Assembly (NCBI GenBank): GCA_949746285.1
Contig: CATJZH010000106.1
Location: 1 to 34,718, forward strand
Direction: 5' to 3'
DNA: 34,718 nucleotides
Source: an uncultured Clostridia bacterium
GTDB taxonomy: Bacteria; Bacillota; Clostridia; TANB77; CAG-508
This document shows, piece after piece, positions 7,807-18,683 of the stretch. Each line of letters begins with the position of its first letter. Position 1 is the first letter of the stretch. A program made the translations under genes and the position numbers. The notes beneath the pieces are model-generated. The model made no database searches and was not told the origin of the DNA. It was given only the letters and a program-made list of their open reading frames with translations.

Positions 7807-8994
7807 CTATTTTACATCTTCATATTTTTTTAATTTTACCCAAATTACCATCATTGTAACAAAGCTAAAACCTGAAATAAATATAATTCCATAAGTTCCT
7901 GTTTTAGGTAACTTTGTTTTTGCTACTGTAGTATCTGGTTTTGTATTGTTAACATTGTTAGTATTTTTATTATTTATAGTACCAGTCTTTTTAGTAGTAT
8001 TAGTATTTTTATTGCTATTGTTTTGTTTATTTGAATCTGGTTTATCTGTATTTGTGTTAGTGTTTGTTTCTGGTTTTTTATTTTCGTTTTTATCAATATT
8101 ATCTGTTGTATAACTTACAGTGGCAGTATCAATCATCCAATCAAATCCGTAAATTTTTCCTTTTTTAATCACAACTGAATCAGTAGTTTCTGTTCCATAA
8201 AATTTATTTTTAGTGTTAATTGCTATATCTCTTTGTGTATCATTATAAATATATTTTTCAAATTTATATTGTAATTGATCTCCATCTTTATAATTACTCA
8301 AATTAATAATTTCGTCTTTTGAAATTAGTTTTAGTAGTTCTTCATTTTCTACTGGTTTATACATAATTCTAAACGTCTCCCCTTGGTCGTATTCATTAAA
8401 TGACATTGATAACTTCGTTCCTGAAATTTCTTTATACATATTTATTTTTTTACTATAAACATTTTCTTTTCTCTCTTTAATATAAATAATACAATTCTCT
8501 CCAATATCGTTTTCAATTTTAGGAAATTGTGTTGTAGAGTTAGCTGTATATTGATAAATTGCATTCTCTTTAAGTTCAGATAATTTTATTTCCTTACTCC
8601 ACTCTTTTTCATTAATACTTTTACCATACTCAATATTAAATAATCTGTTTATATTTTCTTCTGATATATCTTCAATAATTTCATTCGTTTGATAATTTAT
8701 AACTTTACAATCATAAACTTTATAATCTTCTTGAGAATATGTTATTCTTAAACGAATCTCATCTTTATAATCATATAAGTTTGATGGTAAATCGTAATCT
8801 GCTGCATTAATTGATAATAAGACATCATTACTCTCTACATCCACATTACATCCATAAATAATTTCACCATTTGATGAACTATATGAATTTAATTCTAAAT
8901 CTTTTGTAATTTTTTCACTATTTGCATAACAATTATCCCCCATAACAAAAATAAGTACAATTATTACAAATATTAATATCAACTTATTTTTCAT
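7807..8994 (-). CDS. LPXTG cell-wall-anchored surface protein (sortase substrate) with a T/N-rich stalk
   Basis: Signal peptide MKNKLILIFVIIVLIFVMG. C-terminal LPKTGT, hydrophobic helix and KLKKYEDVK tail. Low-complexity TNTNTNT/NNK stalk. The start at 8994 has GGAG 6 nt upstream, whereas the track start at 9048 would overlap ppaC. Confidence 0.8.
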   Translation of the reverse strand: MKNKLILIFVIIVLIFVMGDNCYANSEKITKDLELNSYSSSNGEIIYGCNVDVESNDVLLSINAADYDLPSNLYDYKDEIRLRITYSQEDYKVYDCKVINYQTNEIIEDISEENINRLFNIEYGKSINEKEWSKEIKLSELKENAIYQYTANSTTQFPKIENDIGENCIIYIKERKENVYSKKINMYKEISGTKLSMSFNEYDQGETFRIMYKPVENEELLKLISKDEIINLSNYKDGDQLQYKFEKYIYNDTQRDIAINTKNKFYGTETTDSVVIKKGKIYGFDWMIDTATVSYTTDNIDKNENKKPETNTNTNTDKPDSNKQNNSNKNTNTTKKTGTINNKNTNNVNNTKPDTTVAKTKLPKTGTYGIIFISGFSFVTMMVIWVKLKKYEDVK

Positions 8995-9040
8995 AAAATT
9001 CTCCATTTTATCTTTTGTTTTAGTTTTTACATATATTAAG

Positions 9041-9961
9041 TTAAGCATTTTCTGTCATTATAGGAACTACTTGTTTTTTACGAGAAACAACTCCCTCTAA
9101 CAATGCTGTATTATCTTGTAACTTAACATTATATGCTTTTTCAACTATATTTGCTGAATTTCCAAGTGCAATTGTTTGTGTATTGCTATTTATTATATCA
9201 GTAATTAATAGCATAAATAAGTCTAATCCATTTTCATTAATTATTTTATTCATTCCAGCTTCTAAGTCTGATTTCATTTTCATAACTTCAGGAATTGAAG
9301 CAGTGTTTACTTGTGCAATTATTGATTTTTTATCTTTTAATGAAATAGCCTTAGCATCTAAAGCTAATATTTGTTCTATTGTAAATGAACTTAAGTCTGT
9401 TCCTGCTTTTAACATATCCATTCCATAAGTTTCATAATTTATTTCTGCTATTTTTGATAATTCTTTAACTGCATTTATATCATCTTCTGTACAAGTTGGT
9501 GATTTAAGTAAAAGTGTATCTGAAATAATAGCTGATAACATAAGTGTTGCTATTTTTTTATCTATTTGCAAATTATGCTCTTTATATAATTTATACATTA
9601 TTGTTTCTGTACATCCTACTGGTTCAGCTCTATAAAATACTGGATAAGATGTATTTAGTAATACTTGATGATGATCTACAATTTTCTTTATTTTTACATT
9701 TTCTAAGTTTGGAATAAGCTCTCCTGGATTTGCAGTATCTACTATAATAACTTCTTCTCCATCTTCCAAATCTTCTATAAGTTCTGGTGCCTCTATTCCT
9801 ACATAATTTAAAATATATTCTGTTTCTTTATTTACCATTCCTAATCTACAAGCAACTACTTCTGCGTTTCCAGTTCTTTTTTCAAATTCTGTCATAACTA
9901 AACTTGAGATAATAGAGTCTGTATCTGGATTTTTATGTCCAAAAATATAAGTTTTTCCCAT
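9041..9961 (-). CDS. ppaC: Manganese-dependent inorganic pyrophosphatase (family II, DHH)
   Basis: IFGHKNPDTDSI (DHH motif I), IVDHHQ, and a DHHA2 C-terminal domain. 306 aa. Confidence 0.92.
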   Translation of the reverse strand: MGKTYIFGHKNPDTDSIISSLVMTEFEKRTGNAEVVACRLGMVNKETEYILNYVGIEAPELIEDLEDGEEVIIVDTANPGELIPNLENVKIKKIVDHHQVLLNTSYPVFYRAEPVGCTETIMYKLYKEHNLQIDKKIATLMLSAIISDTLLLKSPTCTEDDINAVKELSKIAEINYETYGMDMLKAGTDLSSFTIEQILALDAKAISLKDKKSIIAQVNTASIPEVMKMKSDLEAGMNKIINENGLDLFMLLITDIINSNTQTIALGNSANIVEKAYNVKLQDNTALLEGVVSRKKQVVPIMTENA

Positions 9962-10090: not shown

Positions 10091-10120
10091 AAAAAAATTC
10101 CTGATTCTAAATCAGGAATT
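10091..10120 (-). terminator. Rho-independent terminator ending the ABC-F / repeat-protein gene string
   Basis: 10-bp stem AATTCCTGAT (10096..10105) and ATCAGGAATT (10111..10120) with a 5-nt loop and a T run on the minus strand. It lies directly after the stop at 10125. Confidence 0.75.
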
Positions 10121-10124
10121 TAAT

Positions 10125-12122
10125 CTATGCTATTACTCTTTCATTTTTTCTTCCTACATTTTTATCTATTTCTTGCGATTTCTTTTGTGCAATATCTACA
10201 GACTTTCTTAACATATGTAATTTTTTCTTATCTTGTGTTGTTATTAAATCATTTTGCATACTAAAAGTTATAAAGCTATTTGCTCTTTTATATTGCATAT
10301 TAGCTATACAAGCTTTAGTAAAAAATGTACAGTTTCTATAATCAACTGTATCATAATCAATAAATTCCAAAGCATTATGAAGAGTATCAATTGTTTTATC
10401 TGACATTTGAGATAAATCTTCTTTATATTTTTCACGACATAAATTAATATATTTTATTACACTTGCTTTAGCCTTTTGAGATTCTATAAAGTTATCCATT
10501 ATCTTTATACATCTATTTTCAATTTTCTCAAATTTTTCTAAATCACTTTTTAAAGTTTTTGTAACTTTATTTTTTAATTTTTCTTTTTCATTTCTGATTT
10601 TTGCTTGTTCTAACACAGTTTTATAGTTTAAAGAATTATTAAATAAAGATATAATTCCTGCTTCAAACATTTCTTCATCAATATGTAAAACTTTGTAAAT
10701 CACTTCTTGATCATCTCCATTTAGTAGCATATTGAATAATTTTTTTCTAATATCCTCAAGATTTGTTTTTAATACTTCTAACTTTTTATAACTAGTAATC
10801 CCATCTGTTCTATCATATAATTCACCTAAACTATATTCATTTCCTAACATTTTTAATATATCTATATCTCTTTTCTTCAAAAAACTTTTTTTGTTTTCTA
10901 AAGTTCCTGAAATAGATAATATTTTACATGTTTCTACTTTTTCTTCATCATCTCTATAAAACATATGTCCATAATCATCTTTGTTTATTTCTAAAATATC
11001 TTGTGCAAATTGTGGTCTCGACATAATAGTTACAGCATTTTTATATAATTTTTCGAAAAATTTAGCTGTTATTCTTTGTTCAAAGTATAGTAAATTTTCT
11101 TCTATTACTCTAGCTTTTAAGTTAGCTATATCGGCATCTGAAAATTCAAATCTACTATATATTGCTCTTTTCCCATTTTCGCTATCAAGATTATTTTTCA
11201 TATAAGATAAATTATGCCCTGCCATAAATAATATACCTTCTGAGAATTGTCTTTCAGAGAGTTTTTCTCCATAAGTATCATATAATCTTTTAAATTCCCT
11301 ATAATCAATTAGTTCTCCTTTATAATGTCCCGATTTCTCAAAAACTTTTTTTCTTATCCTATTTATTTCCTCTTCTGAAACATTCTCATTTCTTAATATT
11401 CCTGCTGTTTTTTCTTCCTCTTCAGCAAAACTCTTACCTTTTCTTTTTTCGTAATCTCTAACAATTTCTTTCATTTTATCTTCTGAAACATCCAAAATCT
11501 GACTTGCAAAAGTTTTTTGTGACATTCCATTTCCATATTTATTGTATAAATCTACAAATTGCCTACCTGTTATAAAATCTTCTATATGCAATTTATTTTC
11601 TTTTATTACAATTTCTCTTAAATTCTCTATCTGCTTTTTACTTAATTCTTCTTTATCTTCCCCCGCTTTAAGTTTTTTTGTTTTACCAAATATAACCTTT
11701 GTTTTACATTTTCCTTCTTTGAATTCTGGAAATCCATTTTTAGCTATTTCAAATACCTCTTCTGCAAATTCTACTTCATTTGTTATAAAGCCATATTTTT
11801 CATAAAATTGTCGAAACTCTTCATATGTTATAGCTTTCCCTATATAAACATTTTCATCTTCTTGTATTTTATTTTTTGTTTTATAATAAAATCTTTCTGG
11901 AATTTTAGTATCTGTAAGTATAATGCTTTCATATTTTTCTTTTTGAAAACCATAAAATCTAGACTTAGTTATATCTAATATTTGTGATGCAAAATCGCTT
12001 TCAGACAAAATTCCAGAATGTCTTTTATATATGTCTTTAAATTTTTTATAACTAATTTGGTCTTTAATATGCAAATTTTCATCAAATATTGTTTTTTCTC
12101 TTATTTTCAATAAATAATCCAA
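10125..12122 (-). CDS. C-terminal part (665 codons) of the second HTH-like-repeat giant protein, probably one gene with 12173..12901
   Basis: Colinear with residues about 260..879 of the 12932..15571 product (LDYLLRIREE.. versus LDYLLKIREK.., down to the CRE.Y...MQYKRAN...DKKKL C-terminus). The nominal TTG start has no RBS, and its frame stays open 33 codons further upstream. Confidence 0.6.
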   Translation of the reverse strand: MDYLLKIREKTIFDENLHIKDQISYKKFKDIYKRHSGILSESDFASQILDITKSRFYGFQKEKYESIILTDTKIPERFYYKTKNKIQEDENVYIGKAITYEEFRQFYEKYGFITNEVEFAEEVFEIAKNGFPEFKEGKCKTKVIFGKTKKLKAGEDKEELSKKQIENLREIVIKENKLHIEDFITGRQFVDLYNKYGNGMSQKTFASQILDVSEDKMKEIVRDYEKRKGKSFAEEEEKTAGILRNENVSEEEINRIRKKVFEKSGHYKGELIDYREFKRLYDTYGEKLSERQFSEGILFMAGHNLSYMKNNLDSENGKRAIYSRFEFSDADIANLKARVIEENLLYFEQRITAKFFEKLYKNAVTIMSRPQFAQDILEINKDDYGHMFYRDDEEKVETCKILSISGTLENKKSFLKKRDIDILKMLGNEYSLGELYDRTDGITSYKKLEVLKTNLEDIRKKLFNMLLNGDDQEVIYKVLHIDEEMFEAGIISLFNNSLNYKTVLEQAKIRNEKEKLKNKVTKTLKSDLEKFEKIENRCIKIMDNFIESQKAKASVIKYINLCREKYKEDLSQMSDKTIDTLHNALEFIDYDTVDYRNCTFFTKACIANMQYKRANSFITFSMQNDLITTQDKKKLHMLRKSVDIAQKKSQEIDKNVGRKNERVIA

Positions 12123-12172
12123 ACTTAAAATTTCGTGTTCCCAAACTTTCGCATCTTTTACTCTTCCATCAA

Positions 12173-12901
12173 TTAATTTTTTTGCCTTGATTCTGTAAGA
12201 CCTAACACTTCTTTTGCAAAATCAAATTGCGAAAAATTATCTTCTCCATAAATCTCATAAAGTTCTAAAAACTTATCTTTTTCTATTTTGTCTCCCATAT
12301 GCAAATTCATATCCATGGCTATAGTATCTTTTAAATCAGAGAGTTCCTTTTTCTTTTCAGTTACAGACTTTTTTATGTATTCTTCTATTTCCTCTTCATT
12401 TTTTTCTGAAAAATATATATCATCTGTTTTCGTAAAAATTTTTTGTCTATCTGTTTGGTCATATTTAATTCTTGAAAGATTGTCTCTTAAAATATCCAGC
12501 ACCTTTTCAGAAAAAGTAATAATATTTAATTTACTAGGAATAGAATTATATATTTCTTCTATCTCGTTATAAAATTTTCCCTCTCCTTTTTTTAAGTTTA
12601 ATTTTCTTATAAGTTGTAACTTCATTAATTCTATTTCTATATCATCTATTTCTTCTTTTTTTAATATCGAACGATTAGTTCCTTCTTTAAAACCATAAAA
12701 ATCTGTATCTTTAATATCTAAAAAAACATCTGCAAACTCTTTTTCTGTAAATCCTTCTCCGTAATTATCATATAATCTTAGAAACTCTTCATGGCTTATT
12801 AAATCTTCGATATGAAGATTTTCTTTTTCAATTATAGCTTCTCTTAGATTTTTCTGTCTTCTCTTTTTCACAGATGTTGCTTTTTCTACTGAAAATCTCA
12901 T
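12173..12901 (-). CDS. N-terminal part (242 codons) of the second HTH-like-repeat giant protein
   Basis: Aligns with residues 1..about 245 of the 12932..15571 product (MRFSVEKATSVKKR versus MEFSVERKASIKKR). Strong GGGAGGTG RBS. It ends at a TAA immediately after an A7 tract. Confidence 0.6.
   Translation of the reverse strand: MRFSVEKATSVKKRRQKNLREAIIEKENLHIEDLISHEEFLRLYDNYGEGFTEKEFADVFLDIKDTDFYGFKEGTNRSILKKEEIDDIEIELMKLQLIRKLNLKKGEGKFYNEIEEIYNSIPSKLNIITFSEKVLDILRDNLSRIKYDQTDRQKIFTKTDDIYFSEKNEEEIEEYIKKSVTEKKKELSDLKDTIAMDMNLHMGDKIEKDKFLELYEIYGEDNFSQFDFAKEVLGLTESRQKN
12177..12183 (-). repeat. A7 homopolymer (coding strand) at the frame break between the two ORF halves
   Basis: Coding strand reads ...TCA AGG CAA AAA AAT TAA TTG ATG G... 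One extra A would give Q K K L I D G R V K D A K V W E H E I F K L D Y L L, continuous with the downstream ORF and the same length as the paralogue in this stretch. Confidence 0.7.
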
Positions 12902-12931
12902 ATAATCACCTCCCTACTCTCTAAAATTTAT

Positions 12932-15571
12932 TTATACAGCATATTCTCCTTCAAATATTCTATTTTGTCTACTCTCCATTGGTATAATTCTTCTCTTTTT
13001 CATTACTGTATCCTTTTTCTTTGATGCATCCCTAATCATAGTTCTCATTTCTTGCAGTTTTCTTTTATCACTAATACTTAGGTTTTCATCTTGCATATTA
13101 AATGTTACTATTTCATTAGCTCTTTTATATTCCATATTATCAATGCAAACTCTTACAAAAAACAAGCTATTTTCAAAATCTATATCTAAAAACTCTATAC
13201 AATTTTGAATAGAATCTAAAATTTCCTCTGGCATTTCTTTTGGATTTTCCCAGTAAAATTCCCTACATAATCTTATATAACGTTTTAAAATTTTTCTATT
13301 TTTTTCTGTATCATCAACCTCATACATTATATGGTCACATTGTTTTTTAATCTCTTGTAATTCTTTTTCTTTATTCACCCTAGCTATTATACTTATAATC
13401 TTATCTTTCTCTATATTACTATCCTTTACTCTTTTCTCATCTATGACTTGACCATTCTTAGCTTTATTATATATGTATTTACATGTAACACTCTTTTCAT
13501 CTAATTCTGTTTCATATAAATTTTCTATTTTTTTATTTAACTCTTCTTTTGATAAATTTATATTTTCTTCTATTTCATCATATCCATATCCTGCTTCAAG
13601 CATTTGTTTTATTTTCTTATCTTGCCTTTCTAAAAATTTAACTTTATTTTGTTCAGTTCCTGAAGTAGTTAAAATAAAACTGCTACCTATTTCTTTATTT
13701 TCAAGTTGACAAAGACTCCAGTTATTTATCTCTAATATTTCTTTTGCAAAAACTCGTTTAGACATAATCGTATGAGCACTTTTATATAATTTATTTAGGA
13801 AAGCTAAAGTTACTGATTGATTATAAAATAATAAATTTTCTTTTACTACTTTAGCTTTTAAATTTGCTATATATGCATCAGAAAATTTAGCTCTACAAAA
13901 AATTTCAGCACGTCCTTCTAAGTCATTTCGTATATCAACTAATTTATCTGAAGAAATAAATAATATTTTATTTGCAAATTGTTTTTCAGATAAGATGCCT
14001 CCATATAAATTATATAATCTTAGAAATTCTTTATAATCAATTCTATCTCCTTTACAATGTTCTCCTATTCTAAAAAGTCTTTTTCTTAAACTTTTAATCT
14101 CTTCGCTACTTACTTTTTCATTTGTAAGTATTTGTGTACCTCTATTTTCATCTCTTAGTATTAAGTTTAAATTATTATCTTTTATATCCAATATTTCAAA
14201 TGCAAAATCTTTTGGACTCATTCCAAAACCATATTTTTCATAAAGTATTTTAAATTTACTTCCTCTTATAGAATCTTTTATATGTAATTTATTTTCCCTT
14301 ATCACGAGTTGTCTTAATTTTTTGATCTCTTCTGAATTTTTTTCATTTCCTTTATTCTTAAGAATCATTGCTATTTTATTTCTTCCGCTTCTTAATGACA
14401 TTATAGCATCTTGATCCATTTCTAATACTTTTTCTCCAAATTCTAAATCATTTATAATAAATCCATATTTTTCGTGTAACATCTGAAATTCTTCATATGT
14501 AACAAATTTTCCTTTATAGACATTTTCATTATTTTTAATTTTCTGTTTTGTCTGAACATAAAATTCTTCTGGTGCTTCAATGCTGGAAATAACTCCAGAT
14601 TCACTCTTTCCTTTCTTGAGTTCATTATATCGCGCTCTTTCTATATCTAATACTTCTAAAGCAAAATCTACTTCATTTAAAATTCCAGAATGCCTTTTAT
14701 AAATTTCTTTAAATCTTTCATAATTTATTTTTTCATTTATATGTAATTTTTCTTCTAGTATAGTCTCTTCTCTTATTCTTAATAAATAATCTAATGTAGG
14801 AATTTCTTCCTTCCAAATTTTTACATCTTTAGTTTTATCATTTAACAAACTTTTTATTTTAGTAGAACCTACACCTAATATACTACTAGCAAATTCCTCT
14901 TTTGTAAAACCTTCGCCATAAATTTGATATATCTCTTCAAAATCATTTTTATTTATTTCATCTGACATATGAAGATTTCTATCTTTAGCTATTATATCTT
15001 TTAAATCTGATATTTCCATTTTTCTTTTTTCTATTTCTTTCAATGTACTTTTTAAAACTTCATCACATTTCTGAAGATTAAAATAATCACTATTGGTTTT
15101 ACTTAAAATTGTAGTTTTTCTTGTTTTCACAATACTTGTACGTGAAACTGTTTGTTGAGCTACATCTAATATTTTTTCTGCAAAATGAACTAATGATAGC
15201 TTGCTTTGCGCTTTATTATATATTTCTACTAGTTCATCATATCTTTTTTCATCTAACTGTTTTAGTCCTAATTCTTTTATTAACTTAACCTTCATACATT
15301 CTATATCATAATCATCTACTACTTCCTTTTTTAGGATTTTACAACTTCCTCTCTTTTTTAAATCATAATAATCATTTTTGGACATATCCAAAAATATATC
15401 TCCAAATTCACTTTCACTAAGATTTGTACCATAAACAGAATATAGTTCTAAAAATCTACTATATTCTATAGAGTCGTAAATATGAAGAGCTGCTTTTTTT
15501 ATCATATCCTCTTTTAATTTTTTTAGTTCTCTCTTTTTTATTGAGGCTTTTCTTTCAACTGAAAACTCCAT
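12932..15571 (-). CDS. Giant protein of unknown family: about 8 HTH-like repeats of about 75 aa plus a conserved C-terminal domain (intact copy)
   Basis: Repeated core (K)LHIxDxIxxxxFxxLYxxYGxx(L/M)SExxFAxxILDI at roughly residues 29, 108, 199, 276, 350, 429, 505 and 580. AAAGGAGGTG RBS. It starts 21 nt after the ABC-F stop. 879 aa. Confidence 0.75.
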   Translation of the reverse strand: MEFSVERKASIKKRELKKLKEDMIKKAALHIYDSIEYSRFLELYSVYGTNLSESEFGDIFLDMSKNDYYDLKKRGSCKILKKEVVDDYDIECMKVKLIKELGLKQLDEKRYDELVEIYNKAQSKLSLVHFAEKILDVAQQTVSRTSIVKTRKTTILSKTNSDYFNLQKCDEVLKSTLKEIEKRKMEISDLKDIIAKDRNLHMSDEINKNDFEEIYQIYGEGFTKEEFASSILGVGSTKIKSLLNDKTKDVKIWKEEIPTLDYLLRIREETILEEKLHINEKINYERFKEIYKRHSGILNEVDFALEVLDIERARYNELKKGKSESGVISSIEAPEEFYVQTKQKIKNNENVYKGKFVTYEEFQMLHEKYGFIINDLEFGEKVLEMDQDAIMSLRSGRNKIAMILKNKGNEKNSEEIKKLRQLVIRENKLHIKDSIRGSKFKILYEKYGFGMSPKDFAFEILDIKDNNLNLILRDENRGTQILTNEKVSSEEIKSLRKRLFRIGEHCKGDRIDYKEFLRLYNLYGGILSEKQFANKILFISSDKLVDIRNDLEGRAEIFCRAKFSDAYIANLKAKVVKENLLFYNQSVTLAFLNKLYKSAHTIMSKRVFAKEILEINNWSLCQLENKEIGSSFILTTSGTEQNKVKFLERQDKKIKQMLEAGYGYDEIEENINLSKEELNKKIENLYETELDEKSVTCKYIYNKAKNGQVIDEKRVKDSNIEKDKIISIIARVNKEKELQEIKKQCDHIMYEVDDTEKNRKILKRYIRLCREFYWENPKEMPEEILDSIQNCIEFLDIDFENSLFFVRVCIDNMEYKRANEIVTFNMQDENLSISDKRKLQEMRTMIRDASKKKDTVMKKRRIIPMESRQNRIFEGEYAV

Positions 15572-15592: not shown

Positions 15593-17506
15593 TTAGTGCA
15601 ATATTTCATTTATTCTATCTATTTCTTCCTCAGTAAATTCCCATGTTTTCATATTTTCTTCAATTTCTCTATTTATACTATTAATCTTTTCTTGTATTTC
15701 AGTAACTTTTACATAATCAGAATATATTTCTTCTTGTAATAATTCTTTTTGCAAGCTAGAAACTTCCTCTTCTTTTTTAGAAATTTCTTCTTCAAGTTTT
15801 TTTATTTTTCTTTGCAATTTGCCTCTATCTTTTAATGGATTATTATAAACTGCTTTTTTAGCTTTTTCTTGTTTTTTATTATTTTCATCTTCTACTACTA
15901 TTTCTTCTCTTTTTTCTAAGTAATATCCGTATCCATAATCATAAAATTTTGTTTGTCCGTTTTCAAAACTTAAAATACAATTAGCTATTTTATTAACAAA
16001 AAATCTATCATGTGACACAAAAATAAGAGTTCCTTTATATTCAGATAACATGTTTTCTAAACTTTCTTTACCAACTATATCCATATGATTAGTGGGTTCA
16101 TCTAATATAAGCAGATTAGGTTTTCTTTTTAATATTTTACAAAGTGCTAGTCTTACTTTTTCTCCACCAGATAGCATACTAATTTCTTTAAATACATCTT
16201 CTCCATAAAACATAAAAGCTGCTAATGAATTCCTTATTTCTGTTACTGTTAAGTTTGGAAATTCTTCATAAAAATCGTCAAATATTGTTTTACTAGAATT
16301 TAGCTGTGCTATTTGCTGGTCAAAATATCCAATCTCTACATTGTGACCTAATTCAAAATTACCTCCTAAAGCTCTTTCTTTACCTACAATCGTTTTTAGT
16401 AAAGTTGATTTTCCTGTTCCATTACTTCCAATTATTCCAAGTCTTTGTGATTTATACAATTTAAACGATACTGTAGATAATAATTTATCGTATCCTATTT
16501 GTAAGTTATCTACAGTTAAAACATTATTTCCACTTTCTTTTTCAATATTAAAATTTGTTTTAAAAGTTTTTAAATCATATTTATTTGGCTCTTCAATTTT
16601 TACCATTCTTTCAACTTGTTTTAATTTTGAAAGTGCCATCTTTGCTTTTGTGGGTTTATATCTAAATCTATCAGCTATTGCTGTAAGCCTTTTTATCTCT
16701 TTTTGTTGAAATTCAAAATCTTTTAATGTTCTTTCATAATTTATTCTTTTTTGTTTTTCAAAAAATTCATAATTTCCCGAATACTCTGTAATTGTTCCAT
16801 ATTCTATTTCATATATTTTATCAACTATTTTATTTAAAAACATTCTGTCATGTGAAACTATAACTACTGCTTTGTTATAACTTTTTAAATAACTTTCAAG
16901 CCATTCTATAGTAGTAATATCTAAATGATTTGTAGGTTCATCTAACAATAATATGTCTGGTTTACTAAGTAATAATTTAATAAATGCAATTTTTGTTCTC
17001 TGTCCTCCTGAAAATTCACTTATTTTTTTATATTTGTCTTCTGCTGTGAAACCAAACTTATTTATAGCTGTTTCATATTCTTTTTTATATGTATATCCCT
17101 CTAAAAATTCATATCTATCCTGCAATCTTGAATATTCTTTTGCGATTTCTTCTGATTTATCTGTTTGCATTTTTATTACTATATTTTCTATTTTTTTCTC
17201 TAAATTTATTATTTCTTTATATTCTTTTAAAATTTCATCTAACATAGTAATATTTTCGTCTTCGAAATCTATTTGTTTTAAATACCCAATAACTGGTTTA
17301 CCTTCTTTATATACACTAAATTTCTCTGTTCCGATTCCTTCTGATAGAAGTTCATTATCTACAATTGCTTTTAAAAGTGTAGATTTACCACTTCCATTTC
17401 TTCCTACTATTGCTACTTTTTGCTTTCCTTTTACTTCAAAATTTATTTCTTCTAATATAGTTTCAGCTCCATACGATACTGAACCATTAGTTATTCTATA
17501 ATTCAT
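15593..17506 (-). CDS. ABC-F family ATPase with two ABC domains and a coiled-coil C-terminal extension, no TM domain
   Basis: Two Walker A motifs (GRNGSGKST, GSNGTGKST), two signatures (FSGGQRTK, LSGGEKVR) and two Walker B motifs (LLLDEPTNHLD, LILDEPTNHMD). An interdomain linker of about 80 aa. The ATG at 17506 (MNYRITNG) has AAGGA upstream, and the 24-codon extension to 17578 is unlikely. Confidence 0.88.
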   Translation of the reverse strand: MNYRITNGSVSYGAETILEEINFEVKGKQKVAIVGRNGSGKSTLLKAIVDNELLSEGIGTEKFSVYKEGKPVIGYLKQIDFEDENITMLDEILKEYKEIINLEKKIENIVIKMQTDKSEEIAKEYSRLQDRYEFLEGYTYKKEYETAINKFGFTAEDKYKKISEFSGGQRTKIAFIKLLLSKPDILLLDEPTNHLDITTIEWLESYLKSYNKAVVIVSHDRMFLNKIVDKIYEIEYGTITEYSGNYEFFEKQKRINYERTLKDFEFQQKEIKRLTAIADRFRYKPTKAKMALSKLKQVERMVKIEEPNKYDLKTFKTNFNIEKESGNNVLTVDNLQIGYDKLLSTVSFKLYKSQRLGIIGSNGTGKSTLLKTIVGKERALGGNFELGHNVEIGYFDQQIAQLNSSKTIFDDFYEEFPNLTVTEIRNSLAAFMFYGEDVFKEISMLSGGEKVRLALCKILKRKPNLLILDEPTNHMDIVGKESLENMLSEYKGTLIFVSHDRFFVNKIANCILSFENGQTKFYDYGYGYYLEKREEIVVEDENNKKQEKAKKAVYNNPLKDRGKLQRKIKKLEEEISKKEEEVSSLQKELLQEEIYSDYVKVTEIQEKINSINREIEENMKTWEFTEEEIDRINEILH

Positions 17507-17662
17507 ATACTTTTTCCTTAAACACAGACTTTTCATTATTATATCATATTTTTGAGTATTTTTAAAGCTTTTTTCCATTTTTTAACAGATTATGTAAAAT
17601 TAAAATTGGGGAGCAAAAGTCTATAACCTTCACTCCCCAAAGCTTATTATCTAAGCATCTTA

Positions 17663-18559
17663 CTATTCCAACAACTTCTCGAAATAACTGTCATCTATAA
17701 TTAACATTCCTTTGAATGATTCCAATATAGCGGCTCTTTCCTCTTCCTCCAGCTCTTCACAATAATTGGCTGTCATATGGCACATGACATCTTGAATTAC
17801 TTTAACAAGTTCCTCTGCGGTTTCTGTGTCAGAAAGATTGCCATATATCTCATAAAAACTACTTAAAATTGCTAAGGCACTATTGAATTTTTCTGACATC
17901 CCCTCTTTAGTCAGTTCATCCAATTTATTAGCGAGTTCACCATCAAAAATCATTTTTTGTGTTTCTACCTCTCCAAACACTGTAAAAAGTTGCGTTAGAT
18001 AGAGTACTTCATACTGATATTGCAGTTTAAATGGTAAGGCATTTAAATTTGAAATCTGTCCTGCAAAGAAGTCTGCAACTCCCTCCCAGATTTGGAGCTT
18101 CACTGCTTCTTCTGAGTACGTCAGCGTATGCATCAGCTCATGCAATATGAGCGTTTTTAGGTAGTCTTCCTCATATTCAGAACAGACTGGAAAAACTAAT
18201 ACTTTGTTCAATTTTACAAAGTATTTGGCATCCATGCCCTCTGTCCTAGCTTCCCCAGATTTAAGTTTTACTCCCTTAGAATGACAAATCTCCGCCTTTT
18301 CCAAAAGCTCCCAATTGAAATACGGATATAATTCTTTCATATCTGTTTCATTTATCATATCCTTACATTCTTCTAAGAGCTTATCTAACTCCTTGTCATC
18401 TTGCAGTTCTATGGGTGTACCATCTTCATATGCTAATTCGAATGGACTCTCCCATTTATCAGCATACTGATACCGATATGTGTCTTTGTAACTACATCCT
18501 GTCAATACTACCATTACCAATGCCATTACCAGTGCCAATCCTTTACTCATTTTCTTCAT
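17663..18559 (-). CDS. Lipoprotein with an HExxH zinc-metallopeptidase-like motif (family unknown)
   Basis: Lipobox VVLTGC after a signal peptide, and LILHELMHTL. G+C is far above the surroundings. The ATG at 18559 is 6 nt after GGAGGA. Confidence 0.7.
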   Translation of the reverse strand: MKKMSKGLALVMALVMVVLTGCSYKDTYRYQYADKWESPFELAYEDGTPIELQDDKELDKLLEECKDMINETDMKELYPYFNWELLEKAEICHSKGVKLKSGEARTEGMDAKYFVKLNKVLVFPVCSEYEEDYLKTLILHELMHTLTYSEEAVKLQIWEGVADFFAGQISNLNALPFKLQYQYEVLYLTQLFTVFGEVETQKMIFDGELANKLDELTKEGMSEKFNSALAILSSFYEIYGNLSDTETAEELVKVIQDVMCHMTANYCEELEEEERAAILESFKGMLIIDDSYFEKLLE

Positions 18560-18683
18560 ATTCATTCCTCCTAAAGTTTATTAGTATTAAGTTGTTGAAA
18601 TATATAATATATATAAAAGAGCATAGCTCTGTACTATATATTATACTTCTTTTTATGTTAACTGTCAATTTTATATGTCGTAC

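Follow-up and report, generated by a model that had tools for sequence, protein, structure and literature searches.

Two tandem genes, here called A and B, lie on the minus strand of a 34,718-nucleotide (nt) contig from an uncultured Clostridia bacterium (CATJZH010000106.1, assembly GCA_949746285.1), which is referred to below as the window. The window has a G+C content of ~25%, and nearly all of its genes are on the minus strand. Each of the two genes encodes eight tandem copies of a helical unit of ~75 amino acids (aa). By sequence and fold this repeat is a new domain family, although the concept of tandem small helical units resembling a helix-turn-helix (HTH) is not new. The array is tentatively read as a polyvalent DNA- or transcription-associated array, with a probability of roughly 40%.

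Repeat architecture, fold and spread

Gene A (12932-15571, minus strand) is an intact open reading frame (ORF) of 879 aa with an isoelectric point (pI) of 8.3 and the architecture termed type I below. Gene B (10125-12901, minus strand) is a single 925-aa gene interrupted by a 1-nt frameshift, which leaves a 5' part of 242 codons (12173-12901, minus strand) and a 3' part of 665 codons (10125-12122, minus strand). The 5' part carries repeats 1-3, is colinear with residues 1-240 of A and ends at a premature TAA; the 3' part carries repeats 4-8, an HTH-like segment and a C-terminal domain (10176-10532). One added base restores the 925-aa frame, and the restored protein aligns colinearly with A from end to end at 40.5% identity over 928 columns. 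The two sets of ORFs are thus colinear tandem paralogues, as a first-pass annotation of this DNA had described them, with an identity below the "about half" that it had given. Strong Shine-Dalgarno sequences stand 7 nt 5' of the ATG in both genes (AAAGGAGG in A and GGGAGG in B), and the 3' part of B lacks its own ribosome-binding site. By inspection, neither translation contains a signal peptide or transmembrane segment, and both proteins are predicted to be cytoplasmic.

A hidden Markov model (HMM) built from nine obvious units recognises exactly eight units in each of the two proteins. In A, HMM domain calls and DSSP analysis of the predicted structure place the array at 13667-15541 (minus strand; residues 11-635), with eight modules of ~75 aa that start at residues 11, 85, 184, 260, 335, 413, 487 and 563 and lie 73-99 aa apart. 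For the seven units outside the seed set the scores are 11-46 bits, whereas none of 1000 shuffled sequences scores above 7.1 bits. The count of about eight copies per protein made in the first-pass annotation is therefore borne out, and a core corresponding to the one that it had listed, LHIxDxIxYxxFxxLYxxYGxxLSExxFAxxILDI, is real; among 1118 repeat instances drawn from the wider family, F42 is conserved in 95%, L47 in 92%, A43 in 84% and Y33 in 81%. The consensus of these instances runs I-x-x-(L/I)-(R/K)-x-x-(I/V)-I-x-x-x-(K/N)-L-(Y/H)-I-(G/N)-(D/K)-x-I-(T/D/N/S)-Y-x-E-F in its first half and x-x-L-Y-x-x-Y-G-x-x-(L/M)-(S/T)-E-x-x-F-A-x-x-(I/V)-L-(G/D)-I-(S/T)-x-x-x-(Y/L)-x-x-(L/I)-K in its second. 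Almost all close homologues of full length likewise have eight units; in remote homologues the number is five to nine.

Structures were predicted with AlphaFold2, for A with 25 homologues and for a single repeat with an alignment of 82 repeats. The model of A has a mean predicted local distance difference test score (pLDDT) of 85.8 and a predicted template modelling score (pTM) of 0.64, and the single-repeat model reaches a pLDDT of 95.5 and a pTM of 0.82. In the models the repeat consists of a long helix H1 (~15 aa), a short strand β1, helices H2 (11 aa) and H3 (8-9 aa), a three-residue turn, helix H4 (9 aa) and a second strand β2, and both models give lengths of 8-3-9 for H3-turn-H4. The array of A is followed by an HTH-like segment (13457-13645, minus strand; residues 643-705, containing QDKKIKQMLEAGYGYDEIEENINLSKEELNKKIENLY) modelled as four short helices, which a long charged helix (13319-13408, minus strand; residues 722-751) joins to the C-terminal domain (12986-13306, minus strand; residues 756-862). 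The C-terminal domain, delimited from alignments and modelled as five helices, was correctly noted earlier as conserved in both genes; it is helical, measures ~110 aa (residues 791-909 in restored B) and is present in 67 of 178 fetched relatives, with Cys769, FF804-805, Cys809 and Ala818 conserved (numbering of A). It has no match in PDB sequences or Pfam.

Family searches covered A, B, single repeats, C-termini and more than 62 relatives with Pfam, NCBIfam, PHROGs and PADLOC. Nothing above noise was found for A or B in Pfam and NCBIfam, and neither PADLOC nor PHROGs assigned them a family; in relatives, PADLOC returned nothing and PHROGs gave a single marginal, unannotated match (P0038, E 0.008). 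Among 82 isolated repeats no Pfam family was matched consistently, and no HTH family was matched. Nothing significant emerged among PDB sequences with profiles of the whole protein, the repeat or the C-termini of type I and type II (see below); the best non-significant matches were designed helical repeats, a nitrogenase Fe-protein tail and Cas11b. Foldseek gave no match at E<=0.001 with the whole model or the repeat against PDB or with the repeat against BFVD, which returned nothing; in PDB the whole model met only generic solenoids (best E 0.043, TM-score ~0.1). An Rfam scan of the window was also empty, and word-indexed searches that used profiles of the repeat and the C-domain gave hardly any matches and were uninformative. 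The first-pass statement that the proteins belong to no family that could be named is upheld across all of these sequence and structure resources. A phage, plasmid or defence origin was considered and finds no support: PADLOC and PHROGs were negative, neither tblastn against 50,697 phage records nor IMG/VR revealed an encoded relative, and the neighbouring genes are core chromosomal ones.

The repeat recurs among uncultured Clostridia. An exhaustive HMMER search of 1.84 billion representatives with the profile of the repeat gave 351 proteins (clusters at 50% identity) at E<=0.001, 267 of them at E<=1e-10, and the best 150 of the 351 have 2-11 repeats each; a word-indexed search gave 38 relatives, none with a Pfam domain. 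All members with an organism label are from uncultured Clostridia, and ten loci from GTDB species genomes all belong to uncultured Clostridium/Clostridia metagenome-assembled genomes (MAGs), with sources that include Hadza human gut and chicken. The names at source are limited to "hypothetical protein [Clostridia bacterium]". A protein 99% identical to A (P0001) is present in five independent metagenome contigs, including one from a mouse-gut metagenome. The architecture of eight modules with a conserved C-terminal domain in two tandem copies is confirmed, and related genomes show it again. Among the 178 fetched members, 67 have the C-terminal architecture of A (type I) and 64 a different module with the motif G-x-x-E-K-N-F (type II), and the remainder are mostly fragments. 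The likeness between the two types of C-terminus is confined to a short HTH-like piece (probability 5%). Most type I proteins carry an extra HTH-like terminal tail with weak DUF2802 matches, which is missing from A and B. Given a confident fold, no detectable relative in the family and structure databases compared and at least 351 protein clusters from sources that include human, mouse and chicken gut, the repeat deserves a family definition of its own.

Evidence on the function of the array

The reading of the array as DNA- or transcription-associated draws on its HTH signature, on the summed HTH scores of relatives, on the acid depletion of H4, on a sigma-70 fusion and on the HTH likeness of the post-array segment; the absence of signal peptides and transmembrane segments, the strong ribosome-binding sites and the core chromosomal setting are consistent with it. 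The H3-turn-H4 motif, (S/T)ExxFAxx(I/V)L(G/D)I(S/T), has an N-capping Ser or Thr on both helices and is conserved over the 1118 repeats, and it shows the lengths of a generic HTH together with its pattern of small residue, Gly, hydrophobic residue and polar N-cap. In distant relatives, whole-protein scores exceed the Pfam cut-offs for HTH_26 (34.0 bits against 22) and HTH_3 (30.7 against 23), as sums over repeats in which no single stretch is significant. Xre-like-HTH, HTH_17, HTH_37 and HTH_Tnp_1 likewise match H3-turn-H4 of distant relatives, and the Pfam HTH matches fall on the helix-2-turn-helix-3 part of the models; VHP and EF-hand_7 also build up score in these proteins. The description of the repeat as HTH-like in the first-pass annotation is therefore partly supported: helix and turn lengths, motif pattern and summed scores speak for it, and the structural and profile comparisons given below speak against it. 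Its more specific likening to homeodomains or sigma region 4 is not supported. No comparison of fold or profile places the repeat in a known HTH family, and what it carries is a local HTH-like motif.

The surface of H4 provides a second line of evidence. Over the 1118 repeats its exposed positions are polar, variable and depleted of acidic residues (mean fraction of K+R 0.29 and of D+E 0.09), against a D+E fraction of ~0.37 at the exposed positions of H1-H3, and position 58 at the end of H4 is Lys or Arg in 80% of repeats. When repeats are compared with one another, no positions of the module are less conserved than those on the H4 surface (identity 0.05-0.08); comparison of orthologues shows moderate conservation at these positions (0.18-0.44). 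Divergence between repeats combined with retention among orthologues is compatible with repeat-specific recognition and is no proof of it.

A third line comes from domain combinations. The relative P0123 (L018:1381-4770; 1129 aa) has 7-9 repeats and a type II module followed by a complete sigma-70 factor with regions 1.2, 2, 3 and 4 (phmmer against Bacillus subtilis SigA, E 6e-42; Sigma70_r2, E 5.7e-18). As a Rosetta-stone fusion, this protein hints at a connection between the array and transcription initiation. Its gene adjoins a Fic gene, has a Coat_F spore-coat gene a few genes downstream and is not in a dnaG-rpoD operon. The type II module itself (ED..QD...G..EKNF) was also considered as a degenerate sigma region 2 and rejected, since P0123 holds the module alongside a true sigma factor; no sigma factor appeared in the PDB profile search, and hhalign gave P 0.18. 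The comparison of the type I C-terminal domain with sigma region 2 was likewise not significant (hhalign P 0.2). In the type I profile, weak PDB matches to proteins of the LuxR/GerE type (DevR/DosR, VraR, NarL and GerE; E 0.016-0.5) share the same 40-60 columns in the post-array segment, with E-values of 0.016 for DevR, 0.019 for 4wt0 (a response-regulator receiver-domain protein), 0.12 for GerE and 0.23 for NarL. In the same segment HTH_7 was found in 5 of 17 family members (best E 2.4e-6; no match in A itself) and Sigma70_r4_2 in 2 of 17, all under the curated cut-offs. These matches are coherent but sub-threshold, and they make the segment a candidate conventional HTH of the LuxR, resolvase or sigma-4 type.

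In the predicted fold, the repeat is an autonomous four-helix module in which H2, H3 and H4 pack into a small bundle that a two-stranded β-bridge closes, and the long H1 links and stacks successive modules. The second helix of H3-turn-H4 and the loop after it present the variable, polar, acid-depleted and Lys/Arg-capped surface. On the DNA-associated reading, eight such modules would bind nucleic acid polyvalently, most likely double-stranded DNA of ~25% G+C. The array may be followed by a small HTH of the LuxR, resolvase or sigma-4 type, and the helical C-terminal domain could allow the protein to oligomerise or to contact a partner, for instance RNA polymerase, so that the protein would act as a global transcription or nucleoid-associated factor. 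A DNA-binding array of this kind would be a modular, possibly programmable DNA-binding scaffold with an HTH-like building block. For abundant, uncultured and very AT-rich gut bacteria it would offer an initial way into the study of global gene regulation or nucleoid organisation, and the sigma-70 fusion would represent a new way of extending promoter recognition.

Several observations weigh against a DNA- or transcription-associated array. The Ala-to-Gly spacing of the motif is +5, one residue above the canonical +4 of an HTH, and no repeat of A or B reaches any Pfam HTH model. In Foldseek, the single-repeat model found no HTH, XRE or lambda-repressor structure in PDB at E<=10, in spite of its pLDDT of 95.5. 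With hhalign, the repeat profile aligned with a four-sequence Cro/C1 alignment in the expected register but without significance (P 0.033, probability 1.6%), and calmodulin (P 0.09) and GerE (P 0.25) were likewise not significant. Net charge is near zero (A +6, B -6; pI 8.3 and 6.3, with a family median of 8.6), and two of the repeats of A are acidic. Among orthologues, the H4 surface is no better kept than other surface positions (0.32 against ~0.34). Furthermore, the sigma fusion is a single cluster on one 6.9-kb contig, and disrupted alleles of these genes persist in at least two lineages, which implies that the genes are dispensable at least in some settings.

The main rival is a protein-protein scaffold, a solenoid that binds peptides or partners (e.g., regulators of sigma factors, sporulation or translation) and in which the HTH motif is merely structural; this is considered possible, though somewhat unlikely. 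The sole structural neighbours are all weak: EF-hand pairs make up 12 of the 27 Foldseek matches of the repeat in PDB (best E 2.7 overall, TM-score <=0.43), and TPR, 14-3-3 and designed helical repeats appear for the whole protein. The sequence G/N-D-x-I-s-Y-e-e-F in the first half of the repeat is similar to the exit region of an EF-hand loop (recoverin, E 0.5), the near-neutral charge would suit a scaffold, and the sigma-70 fusion fits equally well a regulatory, sigma-1.1-like or partner-recruiting N-terminal extension. However, all of the structural matches are non-significant, and the repeats lack the consensus of a Ca-binding loop. Acidic residues are selectively depleted in H4 and the next loop, which are capped by Lys or Arg; in relatives the scores of several independent HTH Pfam models build up on the same segment; and an additional conventional HTH candidate follows the array. 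If the array is a protein scaffold, it is a new type of solenoid all the same.

A bolder form of the DNA-associated reading, which is considered doubtful, makes the module a new DNA-reading unit. The variable H4 helices would lie on successive stretches of DNA and 2-11 modules would specify long composite sites, as a bacterial, HTH-derived counterpart of TALE or pTERF arrays, and in some lineages the array would be wired to RNA polymerase, through the sigma-70 fusion or the C-terminal domains, as a promoter-selectivity device. The low identity of H4 between repeats and its higher identity among orthologues form the pattern expected of repeat-specific recognition.

Disrupted alleles and genomic setting

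The frameshift of B lies at 12173-12190 (minus strand; tcaaggcAAAAAAAttaa), where the gene goes on in the -1 frame and intact relatives read ...ESKARKLI.... The 242-codon frame stops at a TAA immediately after the run tcaaggcAAAAAAAtt (A7, 12177-12183), and an extra base in or next to this run restores the frame. The identical frameshift is found in two independent assemblies of near-identical strains, L011 (Logan SRR11284146) and L012 (ENA ERZ27255223), and is therefore no assembly error of the window. Intact B-type orthologues exist with identities of 67% (P0201, 925 aa), 64% (P0023, 918 aa) and 76% (P0026). In this strain lineage the 1-nt frameshift of B is fixed, and the gene probably produces no more than a fragment of three repeats.

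A programmed -1 ribosomal frameshift or a phase-variable tract, giving both a three-repeat protein and the full 925-aa protein, would explain the same site and is regarded as very improbable. The zero-frame sequence C-AA AAA AAT TAA contains a heptamer of slippery form (A_AAA_AAU) with the stop codon next to it and the downstream frame at -1, and the site is the same in the independent assemblies. Nevertheless, the RNA downstream forms no stable stimulatory structure (minimum free energy -8.3 kcal/mol, z -1.2), A7 is short for transcriptional slippage, and the slippery tract is absent from intact relatives, for which a ACAGAATCAAAGGCAAGAAAA-type sequence was deduced from P0023 and P0201. From this absence, the site looks like a recent 1-nt deletion with a G-to-A change, and a plain deletion is the simpler reading.

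Other disruptions were observed in the family. Relatives of A at L008:9962-12723 and L010:10088-12863 are split into two ORFs (294+597 and 628+304 aa), through either assembly error or real disruption. In the P0035 lineage (L015:8001-10220; also L016 and L017), a 739-aa gene has an in-frame TAA at codon 204 (ELL*RDFAV) that leaves 203 + 507 aa; the broken allele is found on 138 and 117 contigs against 100 for the intact one. Such recurrent, population-wide disrupted alleles are candidates for strain-level functional variation in the gut.

These alleles raise the alternative of decay, in which B would be a pseudogene and the family as a whole a dispensable and rapidly evolving product of lineage-specific expansion, without a conserved molecular function. 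The fixation of the B frameshift in three assemblies, the 3' part without a ribosome-binding site, the split genes, the TAA allele on 138 contigs against 100 intact ones and a copy number that varies between relatives would all agree with it. Decay as an account of the family is nonetheless thought improbable: A is intact and has a strong ribosome-binding site, proteins that are only 40% identical still share eight repeats whose conservation is repeat-specific, the family comprises 351 clusters at 50% identity (267 at E<=1e-10), B-type orthologues 64-76% identical are intact, and very confident models require coherent covariation.

Variation between near-identical strains was also recorded. 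The window and the 14.6-kb contig L011 differ at 22 positions, 16 of them in gene A, and 10 of the 22 cluster within 78 nt (13379-13457, minus strand; codons 705-731 of A) just after the HTH-like segment, which suggests a local recombination patch or a hot spot of variation. Gene B (2.7 kb) is identical between the window and L011, and in all near-identical contigs.

An ABC-F ATPase gene (15593-17506, minus strand; Pfam ABC_tran twice, ABC_tran_Xtn and ABC_tran_CTD; 637 aa in L011) lies 21 nt upstream of A, and A and B are 30 nt apart, with no terminator in either gap. The longest ORF of the ABC-F gene (15593-17578, minus strand; 661 aa) is probably over-extended at its 5' end: the gene callers of related contigs use the ATG at 17506, which is preceded by AAGGA and a promoter-like site that falls within the longer ORF. 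This site (17538-17566, minus strand; TTTAAA-17-TGaTATAAT) is a consensus match only, and a terminator hairpin (17606-17640) stands upstream of it. Directly after the stop codon of B, a hairpin with a T-run that resembles an intrinsic terminator was read from the sequence (10091-10121, minus strand; AAATTCCTGATT-tag-AATCAGGAATTTTTTT); a consensus scan did not list it because its stem is AT-rich and the scan demands at least three G-C pairs. From the short gaps, the promoter-like site and the hairpin after B, it is likely that ABC-F, A and B share a single three-gene transcript.

The order of ABC-F followed by a repeat gene is kept in the closest relatives (L001-L003, L007, L008 and L011). L001-L003 have two intact paralogues (883 + 877 aa) and L007 has a B-type gene directly 3' of ABC-F; relatives thus differ in copy number, with A and a second paralogue, a B-type gene in the position of A, or a single copy. 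In other lineages single genes stand beside PolA, pyruvate formate-lyase, a SpoU methylase, rpsO/pnp or Spo0A. Whether homologues always follow an ABC-F gene was a check proposed in the first-pass annotation, and an obligatory linkage is ruled out by the neighbourhoods of L004-L006, L009, L010, L015, L018 and L019; the association is lineage-specific. No partner gene is conserved across the neighbourhoods compared, and the family genes sit among core chromosomal genes.

This setting bears on an RNA-related alternative, in which the proteins are RNA-binding repeat proteins of a PPR/PUF-like kind that act on ribosomes or mRNAs together with the translation factor encoded upstream, ABC-F. Single-stranded RNA is often read by helical repeat arrays, and the close spacing of ABC-F, A and B between a promoter-like site and a terminator, together with the gene order kept in the closest relatives, would suit such a role. 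It is held to be improbable, as the ABC-F neighbourhood is lost in the other lineages, no RNA-binding family was matched and the fusion partner is a sigma factor and not a translation protein.

Two further proteins of the window were noted. A 413-aa protein (7807-9048, minus strand), whose gene overlaps the end of a DHH/DHHA2 gene by 8 nt at its start, has an N-terminal hydrophobic segment, an Asn/Thr/Lys-rich low-complexity region, a C-terminal LPKTG, a hydrophobic tail and a basic end; it has no Pfam match and looks like a sortase-anchored surface protein. A 300-aa protein (17663-18565, minus strand) with a lipoprotein-like signal (…LTGCS), a HELMH motif and no Pfam match is possibly a zinc metalloprotease, and a perfect TTGACA-17-TATAAT promoter-like site (18640-18668) lies upstream of its gene.

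Comparison with known systems

The closest motif is that of the Cro/C1 (XRE) families HTH_3, HTH_26 and Xre-like-HTH, which share with the repeat the pattern S/T-E-x-x-F-A-x-x-(I/V)-L-G-I-S/T-x-x-x-Y-x-x-L-K and the 8-3-9 lengths. However, the first HTH helix of the repeat is one residue longer, and the repeat is an H-β-H-H-H-β unit of four helices and a β-bridge, whereas the XRE/lambda-repressor fold has five helices. To our knowledge, no XRE architecture has eight or more copies per chain. Sigma-70 factors are related to the family through P0123, a bona fide sigma-70 with the array as an N-terminal extension, and through the weak resemblance of the type I post-array HTH-like segment to region 4 and LuxR; Pfam detects none of the sigma regions 2, 3 and 4 in A or B.

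EF-hand pairs (calmodulin lobes, centrin and S100) resemble the repeat in having ~70 aa, four helices and two short pairing strands, and in the strand-to-helix junction "x-I-s-Y-e-E-F". In contrast to them, the repeat has its second strand after H4 and not between H3 and H4, the EF-hand matches remain at TM-scores <=0.43 and E >=3.6, and the loop K/N-L-Y/H-I-G/N-D/K-x-I lacks the acidic ligand set and any DxDxDG (the hhalign comparison with calmodulin is that given above). TPR, Sel1 and other alpha-solenoids differ in being built from helix hairpins of 34-40 aa, and no TPR-type model appeared in the per-protein Pfam searches.

Eukaryotic multi-HTH arrays, such as Myb R1R2R3, Pipsqueak (Psq) and paired/CENP-B, are tandem small tri-helical units that each give a recognition helix, with 2-4 units of ~50 aa that belong to defined Pfam families. 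None of the Myb, Psq, paired or CENP-B families was found in A or B, in single-repeat searches or among the 25 most frequent families listed for relatives, and the long H1 and the β-bridge are peculiar to the A/B family.

The nearest published precedent for the proposed function is pTERF, a group of mTERF-like helical tandem-repeat proteins with 3-11 units known only from gut-metagenome Bacillota/Clostridia MAGs, of which pTERF1 and pTERF2 recognise particular DNA motifs with affinities in the nM range (Hu et al., NAR 2024; PMC11417379). The mTERF Pfam family was not matched in the per-protein searches or among the best 25 of the 49 families listed for relatives. Both groups are helical tandem repeats from Clostridia MAGs. 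However, pTERF proteins have a 35-aa period, three helices per unit and mTERF annotations (PMC11417379) and thus represent a different repeat, and the A/B family is set apart by its period of ~75 aa and its four helices and two strands per unit.

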